From TPA_inf: Saccharomyces (Eukaryota): DNA of 64,000 nt. This document shows, piece after piece, positions 4,267-64,000 of the stretch. The notes under the pieces are model-generated. The model was not told the DNA's origin, did no database searches, and was given only the letters and a program-made list of their open reading frames with translations. The position numbers and the translations under genes were made by a program. The stretch spans positions 32,001-96,000 of the forward strand of contig BK006934.2 in assembly GCA_000146045.2 (NCBI GenBank). Reading direction: 5' to 3'. Numbering within the stretch: the stretch's first letter is position 1; each line of letters opens with the position of its first letter.

Positions 4267-4378
4267 TTTCTTCATAATACTAGTGTTACAGTCATTTGAA
4301 TAGTACATGATGCAATAGAAGGTGGAGAGGAATATAAAATTATGGAAATTACATTGTTAATAGAAATTATTTATGTTG

Positions 4379-6508: not shown

Positions 6509-6814
6509 ATAACTATTTGTATAGTTCCGGCCACAACTCAAACCACATGGTATATTTTATATGGTTCGAGAACAGGCATCCCCCCACATTTTATTACACC
6601 TTATCCGTTCTAAAAGTCTTGGCTGTCTTTTTTTCCTTTCCTTTTCCTTTTTTTTTTTTCAATTTTTTTGTCAATGCAGTCAGCCCCTCACTATGCTACT
6701 CCACACCCTTTAATTGATGGTTTTACTCCAATTAGAAGAGAAGAATTACGAAATGGCCTGTATGGGTAGATTCTTGTTATGTTTTTACATACGTTGTTTA
6801 ATAAAAGTCGTTAT

Positions 6815-7486
6815 TTACCATGTGAAAAACAAAAACAGTATACAAAGGGTGGTTATCGTGGCCAATACAAACGCGTTTTTCTTCCTTCTCGTGTTAATCT
6901 TCATAATAAGCTGATTGACACCTGGTATTCTTTGTAAAGTTTGCAACACCTTGTTGTTTGCCGTGTTCAGCACGTTGCTCTGCGAGTGGAACTGCGACCG
7001 AGTCTCCCAGGCTTGGGAGATGAGACGGTCGACTACGTTGTTGGACTGATCGATTCGCCTTGTTTCGTTCTGAATGTACTCGTCAGCATCCCCTATAGGA
7101 GCTGGCGCGTCCGTTGTGGAATTAGCAATATCGTTCTTCACGCTGAATAACAAGTTTAGTCTGTTGCGCTCTTGCTGGATGGAGGACCTGATATTGCGGA
7201 AGCTCTTCCAGTGGTCTTGTAAGATCTCCTTGTGGCGGTGCAGTTGGGAAAGCTTTGAGGCGGAGATTGCCGGGTTAGAATCGCAGATTTGTGTTAATGA
7301 ATCGATTACATCCTGTCTCTGGCCTAAGATTCCCTCCAACTGCTTGTCTATCTTCTTTTCTTGGCCAGTTTGTTCTGAACTAGTTGTCTGCGCGAATGTG
7401 GAGTACTTGGAAAGAAGTGACTCCGTTTGTGTTTCTAGAGAAATGGCCTTGCCCCTTATGGTGACGAAAGACGGTTGTGAGCTCAT
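6815..7486 (-). CDS. GOS1: Golgi v-SNARE Gos1 (YHL031C), 223 aa.
   Basis: Full ORF with a SNARE coiled-coil and a C-terminal TM anchor (AFVLATITTLCILFLFFTW). Confidence 0.92.
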   Translation of the reverse strand: MSSQPSFVTIRGKAISLETQTESLLSKYSTFAQTTSSEQTGQEKKIDKQLEGILGQRQDVIDSLTQICDSNPAISASKLSQLHRHKEILQDHWKSFRNIRSSIQQERNRLNLLFSVKNDIANSTTDAPAPIGDADEYIQNETRRIDQSNNVVDRLISQAWETRSQFHSQSNVLNTANNKVLQTLQRIPGVNQLIMKINTRRKKNAFVLATITTLCILFLFFTW

Positions 7487-8083
7487 GTGGTGTGGTTGCT
7501 TGTCTGGAATTGGGCTTTTCCCTGTGTCTAGTTAGTTTATTTTTTCCTTGTCTTTTTATCTCTTTTTTTTTGTTTTTCGTTCTCTTTATTTTCAACAACG
7601 CCTAGAAAATTTGGTTACCAACCACACTATTGAACAAAGATAACTAACTGATTGAACAAGAGTAGGCGTCTTACACTGGGTTTGCAAGTGTCATTGACTT
7701 TTGTTGCATTGCTGTGAAATGCACATTCGGAGCAGTTGAAGGTCTCTTGCTGAATGCTCACATATTTTCAAAATATTGTTTTGGCTGCGGAGTTTGTGCC
7801 TGATCAGTAACTACCAATCTCGTGAGATTTTTCATAAGCATCTTTGAAAGCTTTTATACTTATTTGATCTTTGTATATATCAGGTTTTACCAGTTTAGCC
7901 GCCAGAGTTTTGGTATTTATGTGTTACCCGGTATATCCATATGCCTTTTCTTGGTGGCAAAAAAAAGGTACTTCCTGATATAAAGAAGCTGGTAAGCTCT
8001 CGATAACTGATCTCTTTGTCTTTGTGCAGGATTGGATAATACAATAATTATAGAAAAGTTTCTATTTCACCACGAACAACATT

Positions 8084-11000
8084 ATGTCCATTTCTTCTGA
8101 CGAAGCGAAAGAAAAACAGCTCGTGGAGAAGGCAGAATTGCGCCTGGCTATCGCAGATTCCCCTCAAAAGTTCGAAACTAATCTGCAGACTTTTTTGCCT
8201 CCATTATTACTAAAACTCGCCTCTCCACATGCCTCCGTTAGAACAGCAGTATTTTCAGCCTTAAAAAACCTCATTTCTAGGATAAATACGCTGCCCCAGG
8301 TTCAGCTTCCTGTGAGGGCGCTTATTGTCCAAGCAAAGGAACCCAATTTAGCCGCTCAACAAGACTCGACCAATGTCCGCCTTTACAGTCTGCTACTGGC
8401 GTCTAAAGGCATAGATAGGCTTTCCTTGCAAGATAGACAGCAGTTGCTACCGTTAGTCGTTTCGAACATCTCGTGTCTAACAGGCACAGTAGCCGCCAGA
8501 ATGTTCCACATCCTTTTGAAGCTTATTTTGGAATGGGTTGCACCCCAGGAGTCTTCACATGAGCAGGAAGAATTTGTTCAGTTCCTTCAACTGGACAACG
8601 ACGGTTTTTCGTTTTTGATGCGCCAATTTACCAGGTTTTTTCTGCTGGTACCTTCAAAGCAAGTCCAGGTTTCTCAACAGCCCCTGTCGAGAGGTTACAC
8701 ATGTCCGGGCCTATCTCTAACTGATGTGGCATTCTTTACTTATGATGCGGGCGTTACTTTCAACAAAGAACAGCTGAATAAGTTCAAAAAGGCTATTTTT
8801 CAATTTGTTTGCCGTGGCATGGCGGCTACCCAAACTATTGAGCAGTCACCTAGGATGATTGAACTGATGGAATTTTTGTGCGTTGTCTCTACGGATTCTA
8901 CAAATTTATCTGATGATGCGGCTCAGTTCATGAAACGGTTTCCCATGCCTTATGAAAACGAAGAGTTCATCACCTTTCTTCAGACGCTGTACATCGGCAA
9001 CACAGCAAATGGAAGACCGCCGGTCAAGGCTATCTTGCAAGAAAAAATCCTGTCCATATTAAACAGAAGTCACTTCGCCACCACCAAAGCAGAATGTATT
9101 TCGTTGATTTGCTCTATTGGATTGCATTCATCTGAGTATAAACTTAGATCTTTGACTCTTTCTTTTATTCGACACGTAGCAAAATTAAATTACAAAAATT
9201 TAAATCCTGCTTCTTCATCACCTTCATCAACAGACTTTTCCACTTGTATTGTTTCCTTGATTAGAAATAATCTTCATGCCGAAGGTTGGCCGAAGTTACA
9301 ATTGGGGCCTCAGACCCCAGCTTTCAATACAGCCATTCTGCAGAGACAGCTGCAATATGAAACATTGGGTGATATCTTGAAAAGAGATTTTGAGCTTGTA
9401 AGTGACTTATCCTATATTGAATTTCTATTCGAGTCCTTGAAAAATGACTTACCACAGTTCCGCTCCAGTATTCAGGAGTCTCTGCTTTCTCTAGTAGGCC
9501 ATTTATCAATTCTACCCCAACAATCTAAATTAAAATTAAAAAATTTGCTCAGGAAAAACCTGTCAATTGACGAGCAACAGCGGGAGGATAATAATGATGC
9601 TGTTAATTCTATAATGGCACTCAAATTTGTATCTATAAAATTCACTAACGCTGCCTTCCCCTTCCATGATCCTGAGGCAAGGTTATTCAATATTTGGGGT
9701 ACTGTACGAACGAATAGATTTGACATTATTGAAGAATCCTTTAAGGGGCTTCAACCCTTTTGGTTCAGGGTTAATAATGCTTCCATAAATACATCAGCTA
9801 CCGTGAAAACATCCGATCTGTTGGGCTCTCACTTGTCAGAGACTGAATTTCCTCCATTCCGGGAATTTCTTCAGGTTTTGATCGACCAGCTAGATTCGGA
9901 AGCTGCATCAATTACACGAAAATCACTGAACAACGCTGTCAGATTTAGTAAACAATGTCTCATTTCCAATGCAATATACGGTAAAAAAACAATGGTTATA
10001 CAAGATGAGGATTGGTCAGTTAGAATAGACAAAGCTTTGGAACTTGACGACACAGTTGTGTCCCGAGTTAATGAAATGGTTCAAGGCATGAATGATGATA
10101 TTTTCATTCGCTATTTGACTCTTCTGTCAAACGAGTTTACAGCTACGAACAGTAAGGGTGAACAAATTGCAATATTTCCATATCAAGATCCAATTTTTGG
10201 TTCTGTCTTATTAACTTTATTGAATTTTGTGAGCAATAATGTTTTACGGAGATTGGAAATTCTTGTTCCCGATTTATACCATCTAGTTATCATGAAATTT
10301 CAATCGTTGAGTGATAATGATCTTGCAGTCTGTGCAACCATCATCGGTATAATTTCTACTGCTATCGCAGACTCGACTCACGTTAAGCGAATCACAAAAA
10401 TAGCACAATCACAAACAATGGCAGAGACATATGTTGCATCTTATGTTGTTCCACGATTATATTTGAAAGATCAAACAAATCACATTGAATCTGACAGTAT
10501 CCTAAACCTATTAAACATTTTAACAACTCATCTATCGCATCCTGGCACTAACAAGGATATGATATTAAAGTTGGTCTGCCAAGTGACAAAATTCGGTTTA
10601 CTTCTCCAAGTAAGTGCACAAGAAAGGAAAGATTTCTTGAAAAAAGTCATGGATACTATACAAGACAAATTGATCAACGATGTGACAGCAATTCAAACGT
10701 GGTCATACCTATCACTATATTCAACAGATTTAGAGAATTCCAGTCTTTTTCAAGAAAAATTACTTGAAACTAACGTTTCTAAGCAAAACGATTTCTTATT
10801 TTCAGTTGGTGAATCTTTAAGTGTTGTGGCTGGTAAATGGTCAAGTAAGTACTTGATCAAACAGATTGATATTCCTAATTTCAATGTTGAGATCATGCAA
10901 CAAAAATTCCCTGCTACAAATGTTACCACTATACTTGATGAGATCTTTTCAGGTTGCGACTCTACAAAACCCTCTCTGAGGAAGGCATCTTGTATTTGGC

Positions 11001-51721: not shown

Positions 51722-52067
51722 AGATGTGAGGGCCAACCAGAAAGTAATACATTCAATGCTACTATTCCGTTATTGCCTCTATGTGTTTTCCTTTGAACTT
51801 TTACTTAATCCGCGGGTGAAATTTCATTTTTATATTTTCCATTTTATAACAGGCCGTCCCCTAAAAACACCGCGTAAGAACATAGTTTATACACTTATAT
51901 AAGTAAAAGGTGTAGTAGGTTGGAATGGTAAAGGGCGTATTGTGTGTCAATTATGCGATGAAAATGTATACTTCGAAGTCAATAAAAAAAGAACCTGGTT
52001 TGCCTCATGAAGATGTTGCCTGCCCTTTCTTATTTAGTGTTTGTAAGTTATTTTTGTCAAAGTCTAT

Positions 52068-53060
52068 TCATTCATTCAAAGTAGCTTCCTCCACTAGAAA
52101 ATCGATTAAACTTCTTGGATACGCAGGTCCATGGGTATGACAACATTCTTGTCCTTGCAATTTGCTCATAACGTATGTCACATCAAAGTCCCTCTCTTCT
52201 GAAAGTTTGTAAAGATACTCCCAGGTGGCGGGGACTGTTAGTACATGTCTTCCTGCTTCGTCAGTATACTGGGTATTTCGCTTCATAATTTCATTATCCT
52301 TTAGCGAATACTTGCCTTTGTGATTCAGTTTGCTTTCCAGGACCATAGAGGTAAAAAATTCATCTTTCGTTGGGAAAGAATATTTGTAGTTGGTATCATC
52401 TTCTATGTCCTTTGAAAAATTTTCATTACCACTCCGCAGTAGCAGTCTGTTCTCTGCGTTGATTTCAGTATTTGCCTTTCTTAGTTCCTCAATTTCTTTC
52501 AATAAACTTTGGCGGTTCCTTTCACTTTCTAACAATTTATCTTGTAATTCTTTCATTCTGGCTTCTTTTCTCTCTCTGAAGGCTTTTTGGGCGGCTCTGT
52601 TTTGAGCCTTTTTCTTTGCCTTAGAGTCATCTGGAACATTCTCATTATGAGCAACTGAGGGACTCCTCGAACTTGGAGATATACCATTATTTTTAGAAAA
52701 ATAATTTGTATTACTATAACTATCATTATCATTATTATTGTTATCTGCCATAACATAGGTAGAGTAGTCGCCTGAAATAGGGGTTAGTTGAATTGCTTGA
52801 AGATCACTACCCTTAGGGAAAGATATGTTGTTCTGTAATAGCAAATCATTATTTGATCTGTCAAGGTTCAAAGCAGGACACTGGTCTTCCAAAATTGGGA
52901 AGGGTGCTGTTTGCTCGCTCAATAGGTCTGGTTGTTGTTTTATACATTTGCTATCTTCTTGGAATAGACTATTTCTGATACAACAATCCTCCTCTTGGCA
53001 TTGAGGGTTAATAAATTTCATGAATCCGCTGGTATTATCATCCATATTAGAAGGCGTCAT
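52068..53060 (-). CDS. YAP3: Yap3, a bZIP transcription factor of the YAP family (YHL009C), 330 aa.
   Basis: Trimmed to MTPSNMDDNTSGF..., giving 330 aa. bZIP basic region KKAQNRAAQKAFRERKEARMKELQDKL. Confidence 0.9.
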   Translation of the reverse strand: MTPSNMDDNTSGFMKFINPQCQEEDCCIRNSLFQEDSKCIKQQPDLLSEQTAPFPILEDQCPALNLDRSNNDLLLQNNISFPKGSDLQAIQLTPISGDYSTYVMADNNNNDNDSYSNTNYFSKNNGISPSSRSPSVAHNENVPDDSKAKKKAQNRAAQKAFRERKEARMKELQDKLLESERNRQSLLKEIEELRKANTEINAENRLLLRSGNENFSKDIEDDTNYKYSFPTKDEFFTSMVLESKLNHKGKYSLKDNEIMKRNTQYTDEAGRHVLTVPATWEYLYKLSEERDFDVTYVMSKLQGQECCHTHGPAYPRSLIDFLVEEATLNE

Positions 53061-53288
53061 AACAATTGCTTCAGCCTTATTCTTCGTTAGTTTATACTGG
53101 AAGTAAAGCAAACACCTACTGCCCCTTTTATCGAAATGATAAACAAATAAGAAAGCTCAGAGGGCCTCCGGTAATATTCAAATCGATCTGTTTTATAATG
53201 CTTATTGAATAATAATGCCGTTGCTGTACTCTTAACATAAAGCTACGAAAATCCACTATACATTTTTCTAAAGAAAAAAAAAAAATTC

Positions 53289-53296
53289 AAAAAAAA
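53289..53296 (-). terminator. Pol III terminator T-run for tRNA-Val.
   Basis: A T8 run on the minus strand beginning 2 nt past the tRNA 3' end. Confidence 0.75.
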
Positions 53297-53297
53297 T

Positions 53298-53371
53298 TGA
53301 TTTCGCCCAGGATCGAACTGGGGACGTTCTGCGTGTTAAGCAGATGCCATAACCGACTAGACCACGAAACC
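53298..53371 (-). tRNA. tV(AAC)H: tRNA-Val (anticodon AAC), no intron.
   Basis: Reverse complement GGTTTCGTGGTCTAGTCGGTTATGGCATCTGCTTAACACGCAGAACGTCCCCAGTTCGATCCTGGGCGAAATCA. The anticodon loop CTTAACACG carries AAC. Box A and box B are present. Confidence 0.92.
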
Positions 53372-53387
53372 AAATTCTTATTGATTA

Positions 53388-53533
53388 TGTTGTATTACGG
53401 GCTCGAGTAATACCGGAGTGTCTTGACAATCCTAATACAAACAGTCTTAGGGAAGTAACCAGTTGTCAAAACAGTTTATCAGATTAATTCACGGAATGTT
53501 ACTTATCTTATATATATTATATAAAATATGAAT
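53388..53533 (+). mobile_element. Truncated Ty3 sigma LTR remnant (about 145 bp of the roughly 340-bp element).
   Basis: It begins with the sigma terminus TGTTGTAT 17 bp upstream of the tRNA-Val 5' end, which is the Ty3 integration position. The body (GAGTAATACCGGAGTGTCTTGACAATCC...TTATCTTATATATATTATATAAAATATGA) matches my recollection of the sigma 3' portion. Identified from memory, with probable internal deletion. Confidence 0.45.
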
Positions 53534-53538
53534 CATAC
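53534..53538. repeat. Left copy of the Ty4 target-site duplication, CATAC.
   Basis: The same 5-bp CATAC directly flanks both Ty4 LTRs (53534..53538 and 59762..59766). Confidence 0.85.
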
Positions 53539-53909
53539 TGTTGGAACGAGAGTAATTGATAGTGACATGAGTTGCTATGGTAACAATCTAATGCTTACAT
53601 CGTATATTAATGTACAACTCGTATACGTTTAAGTGTGATTGCGCCTATTGCAGAAGGAATGTTAAACGAGAAGCTCAGACAATACTGAAGCGGTGTTAAA
53701 GACCTATTAGTTGAACATGTTATGGTAGGTACATATATGAGGAATATGAGTCGTCACATCAATGTATAGTAACTACCGGAATCACTATTATATTGGTCAT
53801 AATTAATATGACCAATCGGCGTGTGTTTTATATACCTCTCTTATTTAGTATAAGAAGATCAGTACTCACTTCTTCATTAATACTAATTTTTTACCTCTAA
53901 TTATCAACA
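53539..53909 (+). repeat. Ty4 5' LTR (tau), 371 bp.
   Basis: TGTTG...CAACA termini. Five nucleotide differences from the 3' LTR. Confidence 0.9.
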
Positions 53910-55150
53910 TGGCGACCCCAGTGAGGGATGAAACAAGAAATGTTATTGACGACAACATTTCTGCGCGGATTCAATCGAAAGTCAAAACAAATGATACTGT
54001 CAGACAGACGCCATCATCATTAAGAAAAGTTTCTATTAAAGATGAACAGGTGAAACAATATCAAAGAAACTTAAATAGGTTTAAAACCATACTAAATGGT
54101 TTAAAGGCAGAAGAGGAAAAACTTTCTGAGACTGATGATATTCAGATGCTAGCTGAAAAATTATTAAAACTCGGAGAAACCATTGACAAGGTTGAGAATA
54201 GGATTGTGGATCTAGTTGAAAAGATACAATTATTGGAAACAAACGAGAACAATAATATATTACATGAACATATAGATGCTACAGGGACTTACTATTTATT
54301 CGATACGTTAACTTCAACCAACAAAAGATTCTACCCTAAGGATTGTGTTTTTGATTATAGGACTAATAATGTCGAGAACATTCCTATTCTCTTAAACAAT
54401 TTTAAAAAATTCATCAAGAAATATCAATTTGATGATGTCTTTGAAAATGATATCATAGAAATCGATCCTCGTGAAAATGAAATCTTGTGCAAGATAATCA
54501 AAGAAGGACTCGGTGAAAGTTTAGATATCATGAACACAAATACAACTGACATTTTTAGGATAATCGATGGTTTAAAAAACAAATATAGAAGTTTACATGG
54601 TAGAGATGTCAGAATTAGAGCCTGGGAAAAGGTTTTGGTTGATACAACATGTAGAAATTCCGCATTGTTAATGAATAAACTTCAAAAGTTGGTACTAATG
54701 GAAAAATGGATTTTTTCTAAATGCTGCCAAGATTGTCCTAATCTAAAGGATTACCTACAAGAAGCTATCATGGGAACCTTACATGAATCCTTAAGAAATT
54801 CTGTGAAACAACGTTTGTACAACATTCCACATAACGTAGGAATTAATCACGAAGAATTTCTAATCAATACTGTTATTGAAACAGTAATTGATTTGAGCCC
54901 AATTGCAGACGATCAAATAGAAAATAGCTGCATGTATTGCAAATCTGTTTTCCATTGCTCAATTAACTGCAAAAAGAAACCAAATAGGGAACTTAGGCCT
55001 GACTCGACCAATTTCTCAAAAACCTATTATCTACAAGGTGCACAGAGACAACAACAACTTAAGTCCAGTGCAAAACGAACAAAAGTCTTGGAACAAGACA
55101 CAAAAAAAGTCAAACAAAGTGTACAACAGCAAAAAACTGGTAATTATTGA
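53909..55150 (+). CDS. TYA: Ty4 TYA (Gag-like capsid protein), 413 aa.
   Basis: The ORF begins with an ATG whose A is the last base of the LTR. A Cys/His zinc-knuckle-like region (CMYCKSVFHCSINC) lies near the C-terminus. Confidence 0.9.
   Translation: MATPVRDETRNVIDDNISARIQSKVKTNDTVRQTPSSLRKVSIKDEQVKQYQRNLNRFKTILNGLKAEEEKLSETDDIQMLAEKLLKLGETIDKVENRIVDLVEKIQLLETNENNNILHEHIDATGTYYLFDTLTSTNKRFYPKDCVFDYRTNNVENIPILLNNFKKFIKKYQFDDVFENDIIEIDPRENEILCKIIKEGLGESLDIMNTNTTDIFRIIDGLKNKYRSLHGRDVRIRAWEKVLVDTTCRNSALLMNKLQKLVLMEKWIFSKCCQDCPNLKDYLQEAIMGTLHESLRNSVKQRLYNIPHNVGINHEEFLINTVIETVIDLSPIADDQIENSCMYCKSVFHCSINCKKKPNRELRPDSTNFSKTYYLQGAQRQQQLKSSAKRTKVLEQDTKKVKQSVQQQKTGNY
54992..54998 (+). other. Programmed +1 ribosomal frameshift heptamer CTT-AGG-C joining TYA to TYB.
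   Basis: CTT and AGG are in the TYA frame (54992-54997). GGC (54996-54998) is in the open TYB frame. This is identical to the Ty1/Ty2 frameshift signal. Confidence 0.8.
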
Positions 55151-58100
55151 TACCGGTTCCGGCGTAAACATTACCAATGACAAAACCTTACTGCATAATT
55201 ACGAAGACAGTAATCGCAGTACACGATTTTTTGGTATTGGGAAAAACAGTTCAGTGTCTGTTAAAGGGTATGGCTATATAAAAATCAAGAATGGTCACAA
55301 CAATACTGACAATAAGTGTTTATTGACTTACTATGTACCGGAAGAAGAATCCACTATAATCAGCTGTTATGACTTAGCCAAGAAAACCAAAATGGTTTTA
55401 AGTCGAAAATATACCAGATTGGGAAACAAAATCATAAAAATTAAAACCAAGATAGTTAATGGTGTCATTCACGTAAAAATGAACGAGTTAATTGAACGTC
55501 CTTCCGATGATTCAAAAATAAATGCAATAAAACCTACTTCTTCTCCTGGATTTAAACTAAATAAAAGGTCTATTACCTTGGAAGATGCTCATAAAAGAAT
55601 GGGCCATACAGGAATTCAACAAATTGAAAATTCCATAAAACATAATCATTATGAAGAATCCCTTGACTTAATCAAAGAACCAAATGAATTTTGGTGTCAA
55701 ACCTGTAAAATCTCTAAAGCCACGAAAAGAAATCATTATACCGGGTCTATGAATAATCATAGTACTGATCATGAACCAGGATCATCATGGTGCATGGATA
55801 TATTTGGCCCTGTATCAAGTTCAAACGCGGACACTAAAAGGTACATGCTTATTATGGTGGATAACAACACGAGATATTGCATGACCTCCACACACTTCAA
55901 TAAGAATGCTGAAACTATTTTAGCTCAAATCAGAAAGAATATTCAGTACGTGGAAACACAATTTGACAGGAAAGTCAGAGAAATTAATTCAGACAGAGGT
56001 ACTGAATTCACAAATGATCAGATAGAAGAATATTTTATTTCAAAAGGAATACATCACATACTTACTTCTACACAAGATCATGCTGCTAATGGAAGAGCAG
56101 AAAGATACATCAGAACAATAGTAACTGATGCAACAACACTCCTAAGACAAAGTAACTTAAGAGTAAAATTTTGGGAATACGCAGTAACTTCTGCTACCAA
56201 TATAAGAAATTGCCTGGAACACAAAAGTACAGGTAAACTACCATTGAAGGCAATCTCACGTCAACCTGTTACAGTGAGATTAATGTCATTCTTACCATTT
56301 GGCGAAAAAGGAATAATTTGGAATCATAATCACAAAAAATTGAAACCATCTGGACTTCCTTCTATAATTCTATGCAAAGATCCAAATAGTTATGGATACA
56401 AATTCTTTATACCATCCAAAAATAAAATTGTCACATCTGATAATTATACAATTCCCAACTATACGATGGACGGTAGAGTAAGAAATACTCAGAATATTTA
56501 CAAGAGTCATCAATTCAGTTCACATAATGATAATGAAGAAGATCAAATCGAAACGGTCACAAACTTATGTGAAGCTTTGGAAAACTACGAAGATGATAAT
56601 AAACCAATTACTCGCCTGGAAGATTTGTTCACAGAGGAAGAGTTATCTCAAATAGACTCAAACGCAAAATACCCATCTCCTAGTAATAACCTAGAAGGGG
56701 ACTTGGATTACGTATTTTCTGATGTTGAGGAATCTGGAGATTATGACGTTGAATCTGAACTTTCAACGACAAATACTTCAATCTCAACTGATAAAAACAA
56801 AATTTTGTCAAACAAGGATTTTAATTCAGAACTTGCATCGACTGAAATATCCATCAGTGAAATCGATAAGAAAGGATTAATAAATACAAGTCATATTGAT
56901 GAAGATAAGTATGATGAAAAAGTCCACAGAATTCCATCGATTATACAAGAGAAACTGGTAGGAAGTAAAAATACTATTAAAATCAATGACGAAAACAGAA
57001 TCTCCGACAGAATTCGTAGTAAAAATATTGGGAGTATCTTAAACACTGGACTCAGTAGATGTGTAGATATCACCGATGAATCTATTACTAACAAAGATGA
57101 GTCAATGCACAACGCAAAACCCGAACTAATTCAGGAGCAGTTCAATAAAACAAATCATGAAACTTCGTTTCCTAAAGAAGGGAGCATTGGAACAAATGTA
57201 AAATTCCGAAATACAGACAATGAGATTTCTTTAAAAACAGGCGATACGAGTTTACCAATAAAAACTTTAGAAAGCATTAACAATCACCATAGTAATGATT
57301 ATTCCACAAACAAAGTTGAAAAGTTTGAGAAGGAAAATCATCATCCGCCCCCGATTGAGGACATTGTGGATATGAGTGATCAAACTGATATGGAATCAAA
57401 CTGTCAGGATGGTAATAACTTAAAAGAATTAAAAGTCACCGATAAAAATGTACCAACTGACAATGGAACAAATGTGTCACCAAGGTTGGAACAAAATATT
57501 GAAGCATCTGGATCACCAGTACAAACAGTTAATAAAAGTGCCTTCTTAAACAAAGAATTCAGTTCTTTGAACATGAAAAGAAAACGGAAAAGACACGATA
57601 AAAACAATAGTCTAACAAGCTATGAATTAGAAAGAGATAAGAAGCGTTCAAAAAGGAATCGAGTGAAATTAATTCCAGATAATATGGAAACAGTTTCAGC
57701 ACAAAAAATTAGAGCCATATATTATAATGAAGCTATTTCAAAAAATCCTGACCTCAAAGAAAAACATGAATACAAACAGGCATATCATAAAGAATTACAG
57801 AATTTAAAAGATATGAAGGTATTTGATGTCGATGTGAAGTACAGTAGATCAGAAATCCCTGATAATTTAATAGTACCCACCAACACGATATTCACAAAGA
57901 AAAGAAATGGGATTTATAAGGCTAGGATAGTCTGCAGAGGTGATACTCAGTCACCAGACACTTACAGTGTAATAACTACAGAATCTTTAAATCACAATCA
58001 TATTAAGATATTCTTAATGATTGCAAACAACAGAAATATGTTTATGAAGACCCTGGATATCAATCATGCATTCCTATATGCTAAATTGGAAGAAGAAATA

Positions 58101-59318
58101 TACATCCCACATCCGCATGATAGGAGATGTGTAGTCAAGCTAAATAAGGCGTTATATGGTCTAAAACAGAGTCCTAAAGAATGGAATGATCATCTAAGAC
58201 AATACTTGAATGGAATTGGACTGAAAGATAACTCTTATACTCCGGGATTATACCAAACCGAGGATAAAAATCTAATGATTGCAGTCTATGTTGATGACTG
58301 CGTAATTGCGGCAAGCAATGAACAGAGATTGGATGAATTCATAAACAAATTGAAAAGTAATTTTGAACTGAAAATTACAGGAACATTAATAGATGATGTA
58401 CTCGATACAGATATATTAGGAATGGATCTAGTATACAACAAAAGACTTGGTACTATCGATTTAACATTAAAATCATTCATAAATAGAATGGATAAAAAAT
58501 ACAACGAGGAATTGAAAAAGATTAGAAAAAGTTCAATTCCGCATATGTCAACTTATAAAATAGATCCTAAGAAAGACGTACTGCAAATGTCAGAAGAAGA
58601 GTTTAGACAAGGTGTTCTAAAGCTACAACAATTACTAGGTGAACTAAACTATGTCAGACACAAATGCAGATACGACATTAATTTTGCTGTTAAGAAAGTG
58701 GCTAGACTAGTAAATTACCCACATGAAAGAGTCTTTTATATGATTTACAAAATAATCCAGTACTTGGTTCGGTATAAAGATATTGGAATACACTATGACC
58801 GAGACTGTAATAAAGACAAGAAGGTTATTGCTATAACTGATGCATCAGTTGGATCAGAATATGATGCTCAATCAAGGATTGGAGTTATATTATGGTACGG
58901 TATGAATATTTTTAATGTTTATTCTAACAAGAGCACAAACAGATGTGTATCATCAACAGAAGCAGAGCTTCATGCCATTTATGAAGGCTATGCAGACTCA
59001 GAAACGTTGAAGGTAACATTAAAGGAGCTAGGAGAAGGAGACAATAATGACATTGTCATGATCACTGACTCAAAGCCAGCCATTCAAGGATTAAATCGCA
59101 GCTATCAACAACCAAAAGAGAAATTCACTTGGATAAAAACTGAAATAATAAAAGAAAAAATTAAAGAGAAGAGTATAAAACTGTTAAAAATTACCGGCAA
59201 AGGTAATATTGCTGATTTACTAACAAAACCAGTATCAGCATCTGATTTTAAAAGATTTATACAAGTATTAAAAAATAAAATAACATCACAGGATATTTTG
59301 GCCTCAACAGACTATTGA
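54996..59318 (+). CDS. TYB: Ty4 TYB (Pol polyprotein: protease, integrase, reverse transcriptase, RNase H), expressed as a Gag-Pol fusion by +1 frameshifting.
   Basis: The frame is open from the frameshift site. The track ORF starts at a GTG at 55038. It contains the protease DTGSG (55149-55163), an integrase zinc-binding and catalytic-core region, and RT YVDD (58287-58298). About 1440 codons in the +1 frame. Confidence 0.88.
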   Translation, partial: GLTRPISQKPIIYKVHRDNNNLSPVQNEQKSWNKTQKKSNKVYNSKKLVIIDTGSGVNITNDKTLLHNYEDSNRSTRFFGIGKNSSVSVKGYGYIKIKNGHNNTDNKCLLTYYVPEEESTIISCYDLAKKTKMVLSRKYTRLGNKIIKIKTKIVNGVIHVKMNELIERPSDDSKINAIKPTSSPGFKLNKRSITLEDAHKRMGHTGIQQIENSIKHNHYEESLDLIKEPNEFWCQTCKISKATKRNHYTGSMNNHSTDHEPGSSWCMDIFGPVSSSNADTKRYMLIMVDNNTRYCMTSTHFNKNAETILAQIRKNIQYVETQFDRKVREINSDRGTEFTNDQIEEYFISKGIHHILTSTQDHAANGRAERYIRTIVTDATTLLRQSNLRVKFWEYAVTSATNIRNCLEHKSTGKLPLKAISRQPVTVRLMSFLPFGEKGIIWNHNHKKLKPSGLPSIILCKDPNSYGYKFFIPSKNKIVTSDNYTIPNYTMDGRVRNTQNIYKSHQFSSHNDNEEDQIETVTNLCEALENYEDDNKPITRLEDLFTEEELSQIDSNAKYPSPSNNLEGDLDYVFSDVEESGDYDVESELSTTNTSISTDKNKILSNKDFNSELASTEISISEIDKKGLINTSHIDEDKYDEKVHRIPSIIQEKLVGSKNTIKINDENRISDRIRSKNIGSILNTGLSRCVDITDESITNKDESMHNAKPELIQEQFNKTNHETSFPKEGSIGTNVKFRNTDNEISLKTGDTSLPIKTLESINNHHSNDYSTNKVEKFEKENHHPPPIEDIVDMSDQTDMESNCQDGNNLKELKVTDKNVPTDNGTNVSPRLEQNIEASGSPVQTVNKSAFLNKEFSSLNMKRKRKRHDKNNSLTSYELERDKKRSKRNRVKLIPDNMETVSAQKIRAIYYNEAISKNPDLKEKHEYKQAYHKELQNLKDMKVFDVDVKYSRSEIPDNLIVPTNTIFTKKRNGIYKARIVCRGDTQSPDTYSVITTESLNHNHIKIFLMIANNRNMFMKTLDINHAFLYAKLEEEIYIPHPHDRRCVVKLNKALYGLKQSPKEWNDHLRQYLNGIGLKDNSYTPGLYQTEDKNLMIAVYVDDCVIAASNEQRLDEFINKLKSNFELKITGTLIDDVLDTDILGMDLVYNKRLGTIDLTLKSFINRMDKKYNEELKKIRKSSIPHMSTYKIDPKKDVLQMSEEEFRQGVLKLQQLLGELNYVRHKCRYDINFAVKKVARLVNYPHERVFYMIYKIIQYLVRYKDIGIHYDRDCNKDKKVIAITDASVGSEYDAQSRIGVILWYGMNIFNVYSNKSTNRCVSSTEAELHAIYEGYADSETLKVTLKELGEGDNNDIVMITDSKPAIQGLNRSYQQPKEKFTWIKTEIIKEKIKEKSIKLLKITGKGNIADLLTKPVSASDFKRFIQVLKNKITSQDILASTDY

Positions 59319-59390
59319 TAATTAATTAATGAAGTTCTAAACACACAATGAATATCTGTTGAAGTACAATAATATATCTTTAAGGGAGCA

Positions 59391-59761
59391 TGTTGGAACG
59401 AGAGTAATTAATAGTGACATGAGTTGCTATGGTAACAATCTAATGCTTACATCGTATATTAATGTACAACTCGTATACGTTTAAGTGTGATTGCGCCTAT
59501 TGCAGAAGGAATGTTAAACGAGAAGCTCAGACAATACTGAAGCTGTGTTAAAGACCTATTAGTTGAACATGATATGGTAGGTACATATATGAGGAATATG
59601 AGTCGTCACATCAATGTATAGTAACTACCGGAACCACTATTATATTGGTCATGATTAATATGACCAATCGGCGTGTGTTTTATATACCTCTCTTATTTAG
59701 TATAAGAAGATCAGTACTCACTTCTTCATTAATACTAATTTTTTACCTCTAATTATCAACA
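59391..59761 (+). repeat. Ty4 3' LTR (tau), 371 bp.
   Basis: About 98.7% identical to the 5' LTR. It is preceded by the purine-rich TAAGGGAGCA, a candidate polypurine tract. Confidence 0.9.
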
Positions 59762-59766
59762 CATAC

Positions 59767-60099
59767 TGTAGAGTGGGTGAATTTTGAGATAATTGTTGGG
59801 ATTCCATTTTTAGTAAGGCAATAATATTAGGTATGTAGAATATACTAGAAGTTCTCCTCGAGGATTTAGGAATCCATAAAAGGGAATCTGCAATTCTACA
59901 CAATTCTATAAATATTATTATCATCGTTTTATATGTTAATATTCATTGATCCTATTACATTATCAATCCTTGCGTTTCAGCTTCCACTAATTTAGATGAC
60001 TATTTCTCATCATTTGCGTCATCTTCTAACACCGTATATGATAATATACTAGTAACGTAAATACTAGTTAGTAGATGATAGTTGATTTTTATTCCAACA
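59767..60099 (-). mobile_element. Ty1/Ty2 delta solo LTR, about 333 bp, in inverted orientation and directly abutting the Ty4 target-site duplication.
   Basis: The reverse complement reads TGTTGGAATAAAAATCAACTATCATCTACTAACTAGTATTTACGTTACTAGTATATTATCATATACGGTGTTAGAAGATGACGCAAATGATGAGAAATAGTCATCTAAATTAGTGGAAGCTGAAACGCAAGGATTGATAATGTAATAGGATCAATGAATATTAACATATAAAACGATGATAATAATATTTATAGAATTGTGTAGAATTGCAGATTCCCTTTTATGGATTCCTAAATCCTCGAGGAGAACTTCTAGTATATTCTACATACC... This is a canonical delta sequence. Confidence 0.88.
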
Positions 60100-60104
60100 T
60101 ATAT

Positions 60105-60127
60105 GATAGCTGATTTTTATTCCAACA
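60105..60127 (-). repeat. Duplicated delta terminus fragment (23 bp), with a further degenerate delta-like fragment at about 60340-60400.
   Basis: gatagctgatttttattccaaca nearly repeats 60076-60099 (gatagttgatttttattccaaca). The stretch aaacgcaaggattgacagtgatgtaataatgaacgagg near 60360 resembles the delta internal sequence GAAACGCAAGGATTGATAATGTAATAGGA. Confidence 0.5.
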
Positions 60128-60626
60128 ATTTATACGCTTGGGTGGATATCTAGGCAAGAAGGGCCTTGTGTTTTCTCAATATTATGGTACATCACAAATA
60201 AAATTGAGCAGCGATATGTTCCGAACACATGCCGTTACCTGATGGAATGAGAAATAGGTCTATTCTATCGATCTTTATCTATATTACTGGTATATTATGA
60301 TGTATGACGTAAAAAGATGTAGCAAAGAATGGCAAAAGCTATCAAAAATTTAATGAAACCTAAAACGCAAGGATTGACAGTGATGTAATAATGAACGAGG
60401 GCATATTGAAGTTTAAGATTTAGTTTAGTGACACTGCTTAGGCAAAATACTATTCTAAAACAGATATGATTTTCGTTCACGATGCAAAAGGTTTATATAA
60501 GTTATTTAATAGTAAATAAAAAAACATGCAGACGCATAAGTCACCATTGACTCATGCTTATTATTATATCCAATGATTTATTTTTTTTTGTTTTCGTTGA
60601 TATCGCGGGCATCTTAACTCTTCTGG

Positions 60627-62510
60627 TCATAACTGGGGGGATGTGTGACGATTATAAAAGTTTTTGGGCTCAGTAATTTTTTGCCGCCTTGTAGTGCTGT
60701 CCAGGTCCTCTTTATTTAGGTTAACAATTCCGGCTACATTATTTGCTGTAATTCTAGCATTGCGGTTTATGCCAACAGCAGCCATTTTTTTGAGTAAGTC
60801 ATCTGGGCTTTCTGCATCCTTGCTTGAGTGAAATTCTTTCGACACCGCCCTAAACAGTCCGCCCAACGTGGTACTGTTTGCTTTACGTAATGAATGAGCA
60901 TCGTCTGTGTATGCTGGAGACGAGGCGGGAGCGTTATGAGGAAAAGTATCCTGTGTCGTTCTAGGTAATATCGGAGGCGTCACTTCCCTAGAAGATACAT
61001 TTTCAGCAAGATGGGTAATTATTTTTTCTAGCCTGGTACCTGGTTTATTTTCCAAAATATTATAACCACCATTTTTTTCGTACTCCTTTTGCTCACGATC
61101 TTCTTCAGTTTTCACTAGCCTTAACAGGTTATCATCCTCCTTTTTTTTATTCTTCACGTACGCGGAGTTATGTGTTTCGGCTCTTCTTAAGAAAAGCTCA
61201 TTTTCCTTAGGGTCGTAAGTTGCATCTTCAATCGTTTTTTCTCTTTCTAGCGGTTCCCCCATTCCCCTTACAGGAAAGACACCAGGCGGCGATCTCAAAC
61301 TGTGGCGCTTGTTAATACGGTGCCTGTTAATAGATTTGATCGAGTGATTGTGAGGCAGATTGTGAGGCAACCCCAGGTGTGGAGATCTTGTCGTAGAGTT
61401 ACTTTTAGGTATGAATTGTACGGGTTCTCCCAAGTCCGATTCCATTGTAACATTGTCGGAAGTTATAACTGATGAAGGTATGGATCGAAGCGAATTTAGA
61501 CTTCTGCCGGTGAAATAGCTCGAGTTATCGTGATTTGTATTATAAATGCTTGCAAAGCCCTTTTCAGTAAGGTTTTCAAGATCTTCACCGGTTTCAGTTG
61601 CATCATCGTCACACTCATTTTTTTGTATTCTTACAACTCTTGAATCCATATTCAGTTCTGGTTGCTCATCTCTTGCTTCGTATTCTGGTAAAGATAATCT
61701 CTTTCTATCACGTTCCACAACCACCAAATGTAAGTAGAAGGGAACGACTGCACTAAAAAAGAGTCCTCCAACGATGTTACCTAAAGAAGCGGGAATTAGT
61801 AGTTTCCATATATATTTACCCACTGAAACATTTGCACCGTTAAGCATTGCAATGAAAGATGCAGACATATCTCCGACTACATGTGTAAATCCGATACCAA
61901 TAAAGTCAATGATAGGGAATGACATTAGAATAAACTTCACATGAATAGGTTTTGCCATTAACTGTAAATATATGGCTAAACAAACAAAAAAATTGCACGC
62001 TATTCCTTTTAAAAAGGTTTGGACGAATGAATATGAAACTTTTTGTTCTATGATTTGCCGTGAGCCTATTATCCAAAGCTTCTGAGAACTAATACCAGAA
62101 AGATGACCAAAAAGATATGAAACAAAAAGTGAGCCAGCAATATTACCTAACCAACTGACAACCCACGAAATCATCAAATCATAGATAGTTACTGCTTTTC
62201 TCAGAACTCCAACGGAGAAAAATAGGATATTAGAGTTGAAGAGGTCAGCACCCATCATTACTACATAGAATAGTCCCATGGCGAAATTAACACCAGTAAT
62301 AAGATTCACAATACCCGGGTTTCGTGCGACTATGTCAGGATCTTCGGAATATACCGCTACCAATAGGAACGAACCACTACTAAACAGAACGCCACCAAGT
62401 ATGGAATTTATTAGCAATGTATCTAGTTGCAGTCTTGCTTTCTTCATTGCAGTGGCCACCACCGCTAATGCAGTTTCATGTGGTGTAAGATAGTTTGAGT
62501 CGTCAACCAT
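60627..62510 (-). CDS. YHL008C, a formate/nitrite transporter (FNT) family channel homologue with a long hydrophilic C-terminal tail, 627 aa.
   Basis: Trimmed to MVDDSNYLTPHETALAV..., giving 627 aa. The N-terminal region of about 290 aa has six hydrophobic helices with FNT-like segments (MMGADLFNSN, WLGNIAGSLF). The remainder is polar and low-complexity. Confidence 0.85.
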   Translation of the reverse strand: MVDDSNYLTPHETALAVVATAMKKARLQLDTLLINSILGGVLFSSGSFLLVAVYSEDPDIVARNPGIVNLITGVNFAMGLFYVVMMGADLFNSNILFFSVGVLRKAVTIYDLMISWVVSWLGNIAGSLFVSYLFGHLSGISSQKLWIIGSRQIIEQKVSYSFVQTFLKGIACNFFVCLAIYLQLMAKPIHVKFILMSFPIIDFIGIGFTHVVGDMSASFIAMLNGANVSVGKYIWKLLIPASLGNIVGGLFFSAVVPFYLHLVVVERDRKRLSLPEYEARDEQPELNMDSRVVRIQKNECDDDATETGEDLENLTEKGFASIYNTNHDNSSYFTGRSLNSLRSIPSSVITSDNVTMESDLGEPVQFIPKSNSTTRSPHLGLPHNLPHNHSIKSINRHRINKRHSLRSPPGVFPVRGMGEPLEREKTIEDATYDPKENELFLRRAETHNSAYVKNKKKEDDNLLRLVKTEEDREQKEYEKNGGYNILENKPGTRLEKIITHLAENVSSREVTPPILPRTTQDTFPHNAPASSPAYTDDAHSLRKANSTTLGGLFRAVSKEFHSSKDAESPDDLLKKMAAVGINRNARITANNVAGIVNLNKEDLDSTTRRQKITEPKNFYNRHTSPQL

Positions 62511-63117
62511 TTTTTCTAACAATGCCTTTAGAAAATCCTTTCCGTCACTGTTCCATGAAATAATCTTGTTAGTTTATGAAAATAAAAAACTTCACTCAAC
62601 TGGAAAATTCTAGAAGACGAGAGAGGATGTTATATCGGTAGGAATTTCTCGTATATGTGGGAAATAAGAAACAAGCGTAATTCTCTCAGCTGAACAAGAA
62701 CTGACTCCCATGGTATTTTTTTTTTTCTACTTCTTTTCTTTTCCCTGAATTTGCGGGATAATATAGTTCGTGCACTAAGGACAATATTACGGATATTTCC
62801 AAAATTGGATAATACCTCTCCTTCGTTACATAGAACGCAGACAGATGTTCGTGTAATGGTACCCGACACTCGATGAGACTTTGTTATTTTTATACGCCTG
62901 AAATTAGGAAGAATTTGAGTTGGTTTCAATATTCCTCAGTTTTAAGCAAAACTGTTGTCGTGATTTATTTAAATTTCGTTAATGAAGTTGTGAATTAGAG
63001 TGGGATGTGTTATAAAATGTCCAAATATACACGATAAGATATATGAAAAGAATTTTTATGCCAGTCACAACTGTGTATATACTTTGTCGATAATAAGGTG
63101 TACCCTGCTTGCTACGT

Positions 63118-64000
63118 TTACTTTTGTTTATCATCTTCAGTTACGTCCAAATTTACGGTTTCTTTGCTATCGTTATTGTCGTCACAATTGTTTGTCTTAT
63201 TAATATGCTCGTTGTCGTTATCGTCGTCATTATCTTCATCAGCATCCATGTTCTCAGCTACTTTCTTCAATCTTGCTAACTTGACTAGCGGGGCCAATGA
63301 GGAATTGGCTTCAGCTATCTCCGTGATATATTCATCATGAAGCAATTCCGTAGCGCTTGCTCTATCTTCGGGCTCCACACATAAACACCAATCAAGGAAT
63401 TTTTTCAAGCTTGACGATAGATTCTCGGGTTCCTTTAACTTGGGTGTACCATTTGTAGCAATTAAATACAGTGCTCTTAGCGGGGTTTCATTTAAATATG
63501 GAGGCTCCCCCTCGATCATTTCAATGATCATGATACCCAACGACCAGATATCTACTTTTGGGCCATATTCTTTCCTAGAAACCACTTCAGGCGCCATCCA
63601 ATAAGGCGTTCCCACCATAGTAGTTCTTTTCAAGTTCAATTCATTGATTTGAGCGCAAAAACCGAAATCCGTTAACTTAATATCCCCTTCCATGGACAAT
63701 AGGATGTTATCGGATTTGATATCTCTGTGAAGAACACCTTTAGAATGTAAAAATTCCAACCCACTCAAAGTTTCTCTACAAACGGCACCAATTTGACCTT
63801 CTGTCAAAATACAATGGGTGACCACATCAGTTAAGGAGCCACCTTCCATGTATTCCATAATGACCCAAAGGTCGCCTTTTAAAACGTAAGAATCAATGAA
63901 ATTAACTATATTAGGGTGTTTGCTACCCTTCATGACCAGAATCTCATTGATGATTAGCTCCTTTTTTGGTTGCTTTTCGAGATTCATTTGCTTAATGGCC
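63118..64000 (-). CDS. STE20: C-terminal part of Ste20, a PAK-family Ser/Thr kinase (YHL007C). The kinase domain end and C-terminal tail are present. The CDS continues upstream past the right window edge and is 5'-truncated here.
   Basis: Kinase subdomains VIb-XI are visible ([36 protein letters not shown]), followed by an acidic tail ending DDKQK before the stop at 63118. Confidence 0.88.

Follow-up and report, generated by a model that had tools for sequence, protein, structure and literature searches.

The DNA upstream of the tRNA-Val(AAC) gene tV(AAC)H is, we are highly confident, a record of repeated LTR-retrotransposon integration. The cluster lies in the YAP3 to YHL008C interval of Saccharomyces cerevisiae S288C chromosome VIII, and the Gag, Gag-Pol, Yap3 and YHL008C proteins encoded there all match S288C entries exactly. 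The flanking genes serve only as context: the 330-aa product on the left is identical to “Yap3p / AP-1-like transcription factor YAP3, S288C” and carries a Pfam bZIP_1 domain, while the 627-aa product on the right is identical to “Uncharacterized transporter YHL008C, S288C” and carries Form_Nir_trans. In the 64-kb window, that is, the whole stretch of DNA that was analysed, sigma, delta and tau sequences were searched for and none was found outside this cluster. A first-pass annotation had described three Ty families at this single tRNA gene. Ty3, Ty4 and Ty1/Ty2 are indeed present, but the count was too low, as the sequence appears to hold traces of at least five LTR families (Ty3, Ty4, Ty2, old Ty1 and an ancient Ty3p-like one).

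The cluster is already catalogued, its biology is that of textbooks, and the description given in the first-pass annotation is correct: all of its parts were found at, or a few bases from, the positions assigned to them, and the proposed families, orientations and truncation points agree with Carr et al. 2012 (PMC3511429) and Bergman 2018 (PMC5998506). The former (Files S2/S3) lists YHLCsigma1, YHLWTy4-1, YHLCdelta1 and YHLWdelta2, the BED file of the latter annotates the PacBio S288c assembly in the same way, and the published rows coincide exactly with the window coordinates after an offset of 31996. In these sources, YHLCsigma1 is a TY3 entry of 151 bp on the minus strand (sacCer2 85384-85534; PMC3511429), YHLWTy4-1 is on the plus strand with blocks of 371/5481/371 bp (PMC3511429; PMC5998506), YHLCdelta1 is a TY2 entry on the minus strand, placed in a recently active Ty2 clade, and YHLWdelta2 is a TY1 entry on the plus strand that is fixed in 26/26 strains (PMC3511429). 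The Ty4 was scored as polymorphic (3/24 strains), and the sigma and the delta as S288c-only (1/22; PMC3511429).

Table 1. Features of the tV(AAC)H cluster and its flanks, in window coordinates.
Feature	Position	Strand	Basis
YAP3 (YHL009C) CDS, left flank, context only	52068..53060	-	330-aa product
7-T run on the tRNA strand, putative Pol III terminator	53290..53296	-	sequence reading
tRNA-Val(AAC) gene (tV(AAC)H), Pol III target	53298..53371	-	ARAGORN; Rfam RF00005
16-nt spacer, tRNA 5′ end to sigma	53372..53387	.	sequence reading
YHLCsigma1, truncated Ty3 solo LTR, 151 bp	53388..53538	-	identity to sigma; published annotation
Ty4 left target-site duplication (TSD) copy, CATAC, last 5 bp of the sigma fragment	53534..53538	.	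sequence reading
Ty4, complete, 6223 bp	53539..59761	+	LTRs, TSD, ORFs
Ty4 5′ LTR (tau), 371 bp, TGTTGG...TCAACA	53539..53909	+	LTR comparison
TYA4 (YHL009W-A), Gag, 413 aa	53909..55150	+	ORF list; protein match
Putative primer-binding site TGGCGACCCCAGTGAGGG, directly after the 5′ LTR	53910..53927	+	position in sequence
+1 programmed frameshift heptamer, CTT-AGG-C	54992..54998	+	in TYA4 frame
TYB4 part of Gag-Pol (YHL009W-B)	54996..59318	+	Pfam; fusion match
Polypurine-like tract AAGGGAGCA, directly before the 3′ LTR	59382..59390	+	sequence reading
Ty4 3′ LTR (tau), 371 bp	59391..59761	+	LTR comparison
Ty4 right TSD copy, CATAC	59762..59766	.	sequence reading
YHLCdelta1, complete 333-bp Ty2-type solo LTR	59767..60099	-	LTR identity; published annotation
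28-bp older-delta remnant (first 28 bp of delta)	60100..60127	-	direct repeat
Ancient degenerate Ty3-superfamily (Ty3p-like) solo LTR remnant	60128..60271, right limit approximate	-	strain alignment
YHLWdelta2, old diverged Ty1 delta fragment, 115 bp	60276..60390	+	delta identity; published annotation
YHL008C CDS, right flank, context only	60627..62510	-	627-aa product

The tRNA-Val(AAC) gene was called by ARAGORN at 53297-53372 on the minus strand and matched over its full length by the Rfam tRNA model RF00005 (53298-53371, 53.1 bits). The Rfam match was recovered in a 400-nt scan; a scan in gathering mode over 12 kb returned nothing and missed the tRNA as well. The T run starts one base past the 3′ end of the tRNA, and from general knowledge of Pol III genes we take it to be the terminator. 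On the other side, the last 5 nt of the spacer, GATTA (53383-53387), are the Ty3 target site according to the strain comparison. TFIIIB directs Ty3 integrase to a point only a few bases from where Pol III begins transcription, which places the sigma LTR at -17, whereas insertions of Ty1, Ty2 and Ty4 fall in the first 1 kb or so upstream of genes transcribed by Pol III (PMC5911963). In the case of Ty1, targeting involves contacts of the integrase with Pol III subunits, and for Ty4 the same review gives no host factor (PMC5911963).

YHLCsigma1 is a reversed sigma of which only the final 151 bp are left. Its first base lies at -17 from the mature 5′ end of the tRNA, with 16 spacer bases in between, as the first-pass annotation had proposed for a sigma-like LTR in the Ty3 window; the criterion that we used for a sigma start was about 16-19 bp upstream of that end, and a full, unrelated sigma in L022 lies 15-16 nt from a tRNA-Ala gene. 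The sigma origin proposed for 53388-53533 was likewise borne out, as 53388-53538 is 97.4% identical (148/152 columns) to positions 191-340 of sigma, the reference being a full 340-bp copy reconstructed from another strain. A full sigma ends in TGTTGTAT...ATACAACA, and because this LTR is truncated it has only one of these ends, ATACAACA. The distal end has been deleted, leaving only the proximal GATTA. At the place where the left copy of CATAC sits, an intact sigma has GAATCATACTAAGTGG.

The complete Ty4 that had been placed about 170 bp upstream of the tRNA starts 168 bp from its 5′ end, inside the upstream region of about 1 kb that is described as the target of this family at Pol III genes (PMC5911963). 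The CATAC duplication was found at 53534-53538 and 59762-59766, and the two LTRs are identical at 366/371 positions, with 5 differences. The product of ORF1, TYA4, is identical to NP_058134.1 (“Transposon Ty4-H Gag polyprotein”). CTTAGGC occurs only once in the element, in frame 0 of TYA4, and joining ORF1 and ORF2 by a +1 shift at 54992 yields a product of 1802 aa that matches Ty4-H Gag-Pol (NP_058133.1/P0C2J7) exactly. The reading frames are intact, as had been claimed, and both proteins are identical to the Ty4-H references. The domains of TYB4 follow the copia-type order of protease-like barrel, integrase and reverse transcriptase, and Pfam recognises Pol_BBD (36-116), rve (245-346), SH3_retrovirus (417-471) and RVT_2 (945-1156) in ORF2. 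The position of AAGGGAGCA suggests a role as polypurine tract. As for priming, TGGCGACCCCAGTGAGGG would be complementary to the 3′ end of tRNA-Asn(GUU), the presumed pairing partner. A tRNA-Asn gene was sought in the window and in the compared strain sequences and none was found, and searching the literature for the primer of Ty4 likewise gave no result.

Beyond the Ty4, the first-pass annotation had placed a delta in contact with the duplication and more delta fragments just after it. YHLCdelta1 does adjoin the right-hand CATAC, starting at 59767, in reverse orientation and complete to its terminal TG and CA, and the additional fragments are those at 60100-60127 and 60276-60390. A complete delta LTR was expected to measure about 332-338 bp and to have TG...CA ends. 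The identity of about 85% or higher to delta that the first-pass annotation had asked of 59767-60099 holds with respect to the Ty2 subfamily, but not to Ty1-type LTRs: YHLCdelta1 shares 96.4% identity with the 5′ LTR of a Ty2 in L027 (its Gag groups with those of Ty2-C, Ty2-OR2 and Ty2-DR1) and 96-99% with 12 other tRNA-adjacent copies, compared with 82% with the Ty1 LTR of L010. By sequence identity, YHLCdelta1 is thus classed as Ty2-type. Other copies of this delta type lie 120-430 bp upstream of tRNA genes. The adjoining 28 bp repeat 60072-60099 in direct orientation with 93% identity. They were found in all of the S288C-type strains that were examined and may be the remnant of an older delta that received the Ty2. 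YHLWdelta2, in the opposite orientation to YHLCdelta1, matches delta with an identity of about 73-75% across some 116 nt; it was found in all strains examined and is fixed in the species.

YHLCdelta1 lies between CATAC (left) and TATAT (right) and has no 5-bp TSD, which does not argue against its identity as a delta, since this is expected of a solo LTR that arises by recombination between two insertions. The unmatched flanks show that some rearrangement occurred, of which recombination between two elements is only the most economical reconstruction. The sigma/delta junction could instead have been produced by a non-homologous deletion or some other rearrangement, with the delta lying beside CATAC by accident, and flanks devoid of matching 5-bp repeats would fit such an origin. 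However, the delta is complete at both ends and the 28-bp stub stops exactly at a delta terminus. A random deletion rarely ends at an LTR terminus, whereas LTR-LTR recombination accounts for both clean ends; consequently, we consider a non-homologous origin improbable.

The first-pass annotation missed a further remnant, at about 60128-60271. Its first part (60128-60191) is 98% identical to an intact copy in other strains that starts at -17, and the sequence is present in every strain examined. In the haplotype of the window the 172 bp proximal to the tRNA have been deleted, and about 144 bp survive in S288C. The intact L003 copy aligns to the Ty3p LTR with a score of 170 over 364 columns (62% identity, z = 22 against shuffles) and to Ty3 sigma with a score of 128 over 239 columns (64% identity); the S288C remnant by itself gives a weak, barely detectable signal (z = 3.9). 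These alignments suggest that the element is likely an unannotated Ty3p-like relic. Fifteen published S. cerevisiae Ty3p copies have been scored as fixed (Carr et al. 2012, PMC3511429), and there are S. paradoxus TY3_1p entries on chrVIII (Bergman 2018, PMC5998506).

Comparison of the strain contigs that carry four YAP3 protein alleles and the S288C YHL008C allele shows that the site upstream of tV(AAC)H is highly polymorphic. An ancestral haplotype, with a single GATTA, an intact ancient LTR and none of the young elements, was found in 25 places. Other contigs carry insertions of their own. In L010, an independent sigma of opposite orientation occupies the same nucleotide, with GATTA on both sides and a nested Ty1. 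A solo delta of separate origin, with CTTCT as its duplication, is present in L002, and L008 has a full Ty1 further out. The Ty1 label of the L010 element rests on its 440-aa Gag, a length that we take to be a Ty1 hallmark, and on its distinctness from the Ty2 cluster; no exact sequence for this Gag was found in the protein collection. The Ty4 of the window is present in L012 and L015, two chromosome-level assemblies in which the whole 7.5-kb interval is 100% identical except for a 2-bp TA indel. L014 has a solo tau with CATAC on both flanks, which reads G and then T, A, C, G at the five diagnostic positions, i.e., the 5′-LTR state followed by the 3′-LTR state. This shows that the solo tau of L014 is a recombinant between the 5′ and 3′ LTRs of the window’s Ty4.

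L011 and L016 were considered as partial-tau or complex alleles and rejected, as their runs of 100 N are scaffolding artefacts and therefore uninformative, and the short YHL008C contigs L038-L042 end inside the delta and are silent on Ty4. Such breaks and N gaps in short-read assemblies (L011, L016, L038-L042) are what would be expected if the nesting were itself an artefact of collapsed or chimeric repeats. However, L012 and L015 reproduce the 7.5-kb interval independently, the PacBio S288c assembly is annotated in the same way (PMC5998506), and the duplications and reading frames are intact, so the chance that the nesting is an artefact is negligible.

From these observations we infer an order of steps, from the Ty3 insertion in the S288C lineage to the integration of Ty4, as well as the recombination behind the deletion. 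Two insertions would first have become fixed in the species, an old Ty1 delta and, at -17, the ancient Ty3p-like LTR. In the S288C lineage, the same GATTA would then have received another Ty3, reversed in orientation and later reduced to a solo sigma, and Ty2-type elements would subsequently have inserted into this sigma (after base 151) and into an older delta. Recombination between the LTRs of the Ty2-type elements may have removed the distal 189 bp of sigma along with the 172 bp of the ancient LTR, producing one delta with unmatched flanks and the 28-bp delta stub. Ty4 would have followed, with the terminal 5 bp of the remaining sigma (CATAC) as its target, and it is still of full length with open Gag and Gag-Pol frames. 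Finally, in some strains the same Ty4 has been reduced to a solo tau by LTR-LTR recombination.

The first-pass annotation had concluded that Ty4 inserted at a pre-existing sigma/delta junction. This is the likelier order, but the junction alone does not force it. Ty4 could have come first, entering an intact sigma at CATAC; a Ty2 would later have inserted into the right-hand CATAC, and recombination with a second delta would have taken away what remained of sigma together with some of the ancient LTR. Such a history leads equally well to the arrangement now seen (sigma 1-151, Ty4, CATAC, delta), both orders need the same 5-bp target to be used twice, and YHLCdelta1 is young, as it belongs to a recently active Ty2 clade and was scored as S288c-only (PMC3511429). 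By contrast, the Ty2 is already a solo LTR and is involved in a deletion, whereas the Ty4 is of full length with an undisturbed TSD, which usually marks the full-length element as the youngest. The five S288C-type strains seen all have delta and tau together and do not separate the two orders. Strains lacking Ty4 were found, as a check of the empty site would require, but these also lack the sigma and the delta: the haplotypes are either S288C-type, with tau or Ty4, or ancestral, and the pre-Ty4 allele (sigma 1-151 running into the delta, CATAC being present once) was found in none of the contigs with the YAP3 and YHL008C alleles. As no strain with that arrangement was found, the late arrival of Ty4 has no direct witness. 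On balance, we regard an early Ty4 as possible but doubtful, and the sequence features suggest that Ty4 was likely the last to arrive.

We lean towards the view that position -17 of tV(AAC)H was hit at least three times by the Ty3 superfamily (the ancient Ty3p-like LTR, the S288C sigma and the sigma in opposite orientation elsewhere) and that CATAC was used by both Ty2 and Ty4. If so, tV(AAC)H would be a compact natural example of same-site integration reuse at base resolution. The literature and the reference annotation already cover Ty integration beside tRNA genes, nested Ty/LTR clusters, the precise positioning of Ty3 and this locus itself. The probable Ty3p-like relic and the evidence for reuse of integration sites are small additions, of interest only to curators of yeast transposon annotation and to studies of integration-site choice; beyond showing that Ty anatomy can be read from raw sequence, the cluster matters little.

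Clusters of Ty1, Ty2 and Ty4 upstream of tRNA genes were reportedly described in the genome-wide Ty survey of Kim et al. 1998. The genome-wide survey of Carr et al. 2012 (PMC3511429) also describes them, and each element of the cluster can be set beside its known relatives. YHLCsigma1 resembles the Ty3 sigma solo LTRs found at Pol III start sites in its identity (97.4%), its start at -17 and its GATTA target, but it retains only 151 of 340 bp and has lost the distal end and the second GATTA. YHLCdelta1 shares with Ty2-type delta solo LTRs its length of 333 bp, its TG...CA ends, an identity of 96-99% and a location less than 1 kb upstream of a tRNA gene, and differs from them in having no matching 5-bp duplication. 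Like the degenerate Ty3p solo LTRs of Carr et al. 2012, the ancient LTR is present in every strain examined; its ancestral sequence gives an alignment that spans almost all of the Ty3p LTR, with a higher score than against sigma, although the copy at tV(AAC)H is absent from the published S288c entries. With regard to YHLWTy4-1 (Ty4-H; YHL009W-A/YHL009W-B), no difference was found: the Ty4 of the window is this same element, one of the three full-length Ty4 copies in S. cerevisiae S288C.

The repeats upstream of the tRNA-Val(AAC) gene are the annotated YHLCsigma1/YHLWTy4-1/YHLCdelta1/YHLWdelta2 cluster at tV(AAC)H (see table). The first-pass annotation had recognized this cluster from the sequence, and its observation is confirmed and its interpretation supported, with refinements. 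As the products of both flanking genes and the Ty4-H Gag are exact matches to their reference entries, the window belongs to chromosome VIII, left arm, and its Ty4 is YHLWTy4-1. The published rows (Carr, Bensasson and Bergman 2012, Files S2/S3, in sacCer2 coordinates; PMC3511429) fall, after subtraction of 31996, at 53388-53538, 53539-59761, 59777-60099 and 60276-60390, the same parts as were delimited here independently, and the PacBio S288c assembly is annotated alike, its Ty4 divided into 371, 5481 and 371 bp (Bergman 2018, PMC5998506). Given this agreement, the cluster must be considered fully known already; solely a 28-bp delta stub and a Ty3p-like remnant are absent from the published lists. 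A search for further sigma, delta and tau sequence (the LTRs of Ty3, Ty1/Ty2 and Ty4, respectively) across the 64-kb window returned none besides the listed parts.

Features of the YAP3-YHL008C interval in window coordinates, with the corresponding published rows (PMC3511429)
Feature	Window	Strand	Published family, sacCer2 coordinates, strains	Remarks
Yap3p	52068-53060	-		330-aa product, exact match to S. cerevisiae S288C entry
tRNA-Val(AAC)	53297-53372	-		ARAGORN
YHLCsigma1	53388-53538	-	TY3, 85384-85534, S288c only (1/22)	sigma fragment
Left CATAC	53534-53538			Ty4 target-site duplication
YHLWTy4-1	53539-59761	+	TY4, 85535-91757, polymorphic (3/24)	full length
Ty4 5' LTR	53539-53909			371-bp direct repeat
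Ty4 Gag	53909-55150			413 aa, exact match to NP_058134.1, 'Transposon Ty4-H Gag polyprotein'
Ty4 3' LTR	59391-59761			371-bp direct repeat
Right CATAC	59762-59766			Ty4 target-site duplication
YHLCdelta1	59767-60099	-	TY2, 91773-92095, S288c only (1/22)	solo delta, complete 333-bp LTR, directly after right CATAC
Delta stub	60100-60127			28 bp, 93% identical to last 28 bp of solo delta
Likely Ty3p-like remnant	60128-~60271			right limit approximate
YHLWdelta2	60276-60390	+	TY1, 92272-92386, fixed (26/26)	old delta piece, opposite to solo delta, ~73% identity
YHL008C	60627-62510	-		627-aa product, exact match to S. cerevisiae S288C entry

The full length of the Rfam tRNA model aligns to 53298-53371 (53.1 bits in a 400-nt scan; cut-off 29), and a run of seven Ts, read from the sequence, follows the tRNA 3' end on the tRNA strand. 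A gathering-mode Rfam scan of 12 kb (window 52000-64000) gave zero matches, even for this tRNA, and consequently an empty scan of that kind is no proof of absence. A spacer of 16 bases separates the tRNA 5' end from the sigma, which opens with TGTTGTATTACGGGCTCGAG... from 53388. The reference sigma, complete at 340 bp, was reconstructed from L010 (L-numbers denote stretches from other yeast strains or metagenomes), where Ty1 interrupts it; its positions 191-340 align in reverse to the fragment with 97.4% identity (148/152 columns, including a 2-bp TA indel). From the spacer and this alignment, the fragment starts at -17 and ends after 151 bp, so that a sigma-derived segment does lie at the Ty3 position, as had been proposed. 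A short TA run at 53509-53520 varies by an indel of one TA dinucleotide, which gives the fragment 151 bp in the window and the published sacCer2 annotation but 149 bp in the remaining S288C-type assemblies and the PacBio S288c annotation.

The element beyond it is a complete Ty4 flanked by CATAC on both sides, as first described. The TYA4 start codon (53909-53911) straddles the end of the 5' LTR, taking up its final base and then the opening bases of the putative primer-binding site (53910-53927). A second open reading frame, located between the LTRs, overlaps the Gag frame in the +1 frame and encodes Pol_BBD, rve (integrase), SH3_retrovirus and RVT_2 Pfam domains, the copia-type order. The heptamer CTTAGGC occurs a single time within the element, in the Gag frame at 54992; when CTT is read, A is skipped and reading resumes at GGC, a stop-free product of 1802 aa is obtained that exactly matches NP_058133.1/P0C2J7, 'Transposon Ty4-H Gag-Pol polyprotein'. 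Consequently, the reading frames of Ty4 are intact, in agreement with the earlier reading. Five positions (20, 154, 182, 244 and 263; 1.3%) distinguish the two LTRs. At several of these, one or other state recurs in further tau copies aligned by Carr et al., a pattern that points to gene conversion or a mixed template more than to simple ageing.

The solo delta is of the Ty2 type. When metagenome contigs were scanned with a 35-nt piece of it, 14 yeast stretches were recovered, 12 of which hold copies 96-99% identical to it, placed 120-430 bp upstream of a tRNA gene where such a gene is in view. The copy in L027 (96.4% identical) serves as 5' LTR to an element with a 438-aa Gag that groups with Ty2-C, Ty2-OR2 and Ty2-DR1 at the 90% cluster level, whereas identity to the Ty1 LTR of L010 is just 82%; the subfamily assignment follows from this difference. 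The expected delta identity of at least 85% is thus found within the Ty2 subfamily and not against that Ty1 LTR. Some members of the Ty2 Gag cluster come from records labelled Streptococcus uberis and Parabacteroides merdae, most likely through contamination of bacterial assemblies with yeast DNA. The further delta fragments reported beyond the solo delta are the stub and the old delta piece.

For comparison with other strains, the YAP3-YHL008C interval was taken from contigs with four YAP3 alleles and with the S288C YHL008C allele; L011 and L016 were left out owing to runs of N in their repeats. An ancestral haplotype is found in 25 places (L001, L003-L007, L009, L043-L060), none of which holds a young sigma, tau or Ty2 delta. 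Its intergenic region of ~1 kb comprises the tRNA, a 16-nt spacer ending in a single GATTA (the Ty3 target site), 172 bp that the window lacks, and lastly sequence corresponding to window 60128 onward. Together, those 172 bp and the equivalent of window 60128-~60271 form a single degenerate LTR that begins at -17 in the orientation of the window's sigma. An intact copy (L003, reverse complement of locus bases 9356-9676, analysis coordinates 525-845) is 64% identical to sigma over 239 columns (score 128, z = 14 against dinucleotide shuffles) and, nearly at full length, 62% identical over 364 columns to the Ty3p LTR given by Carr et al. in File S1 (score 170, z = 22). Intact copies are present in the 25 ancestral places and also in L002, L008 and L010. 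The window's portion alone matches Ty3p weakly (z = 3.9), and its bases 60128-60191 are 98% identical to the intact LTR of other strains. Judged by these alignments, it is likely the remnant of an ancient Ty3-superfamily LTR, nearer Ty3p than sigma. It occupies the unannotated gap between YHLCdelta1 and YHLWdelta2 and is not among the S288c entries of either the Carr 2012 or the Bergman 2018 list. The BED files of the latter include a TY3_1p solo LTR (minus strand, ~354 bp) on S. paradoxus chrVIII near 74-80 kb (PMC5998506), which may be its orthologue.

Other haplotypes carry insertions of their own. In L010, a complete sigma occupies the identical nucleotide but is oppositely oriented; it is flanked by GATTA at either end and contains a nested full Ty1 with the duplication GAAAC (reverse complement of locus bases 1-10200, positions 525-6786). 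Here Ty3 inserted at this site independently of the event seen in the window. L002 has a separate solo delta ~125 bp from the tRNA (duplication CTTCT), and L008 a full Ty1 further out. The window's Ty4 is present in L012 and L015 with 100% identity across the element, and L014 has a solo tau between the same CATAC copies (reverse complement, positions 677-1047). At the five diagnostic positions this tau reads G, T, A, C and G; position 20 agrees with the 5' LTR and the remaining four with the 3' LTR. It thus arose by recombination between the two LTRs of this very Ty4, with the crossover between positions 20 and 154, and is a direct illustration of solo-LTR formation. In L013/L035 (GCA_032144715.1), neither the tRNA-Val gene nor any LTR is left; the 34-bp loxPsym ATAACTTCGTATAATGTACATTATACGAAGTTAT stands in their place, and this looks like a synthetic (Sc2.0-type) chromosome VIII. 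In L053 (an ERZ27275369 contig), gene order downstream of the BRAP2-family gene is unlike that of other strains, with an aldose epimerase and a PDR-type ABC transporter where others have PRS and UDPGP genes; either the region is rearranged or the metagenome contig is chimeric.

The sequence fits a series of six events, of which we infer the second to the fifth. The ancient Ty3p-like LTR and the old Ty1 delta reached fixation first. In the S288C lineage, a new Ty3 would then have inserted at GATTA and been reduced to a solo sigma, after which Ty2-type elements would have integrated at two places, one following base 151 of sigma and the other 28 bp inside an older delta. Through recombination between their LTRs, sigma would have lost its distal 189 bp together with the second GATTA, the ancient LTR 172 bp, and the older delta most of its length; this would explain a solo delta that is full length although its flanks, CATAC (left) and TATAT (right), do not match. 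Ty4 would then have integrated at CATAC, and in some strains it has been reduced to a solo tau. The proposal that Ty4 entered a pre-existing sigma/delta junction holds insofar as CATAC is sigma sequence, uninterrupted sigma reading GAATCATACTAAG at that point. However, the right-hand CATAC is located between Ty4 and the solo delta, and the same arrangement would arise if Ty4 had come first and Ty2 had later used that copy as its target. Either order requires two integrations at the same 5 bp, and no strain that settles the order was found among the contigs with the four YAP3 alleles or the S288C YHL008C allele. We consider it fairly probable that Ty4 inserted last, as it is full length with an untouched duplication, while Ty2 is reduced to a solo LTR and was involved in the deletion.

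These positions can be set beside what is known of Ty targeting. TFIIIB directs the Ty3 integrase to 1-4 nt from the Pol III start site, with insertion possible in either orientation, and Ty1, Ty2 and Ty4 integrate upstream of Pol III genes at distances of up to ~1 kb; for Ty1, integrase is known to contact Pol III subunits, and for Ty4 no host factor is established (PMC5911963). The cluster at tV(AAC)H is a standard, already known example of Pol III-targeted Ty integration.
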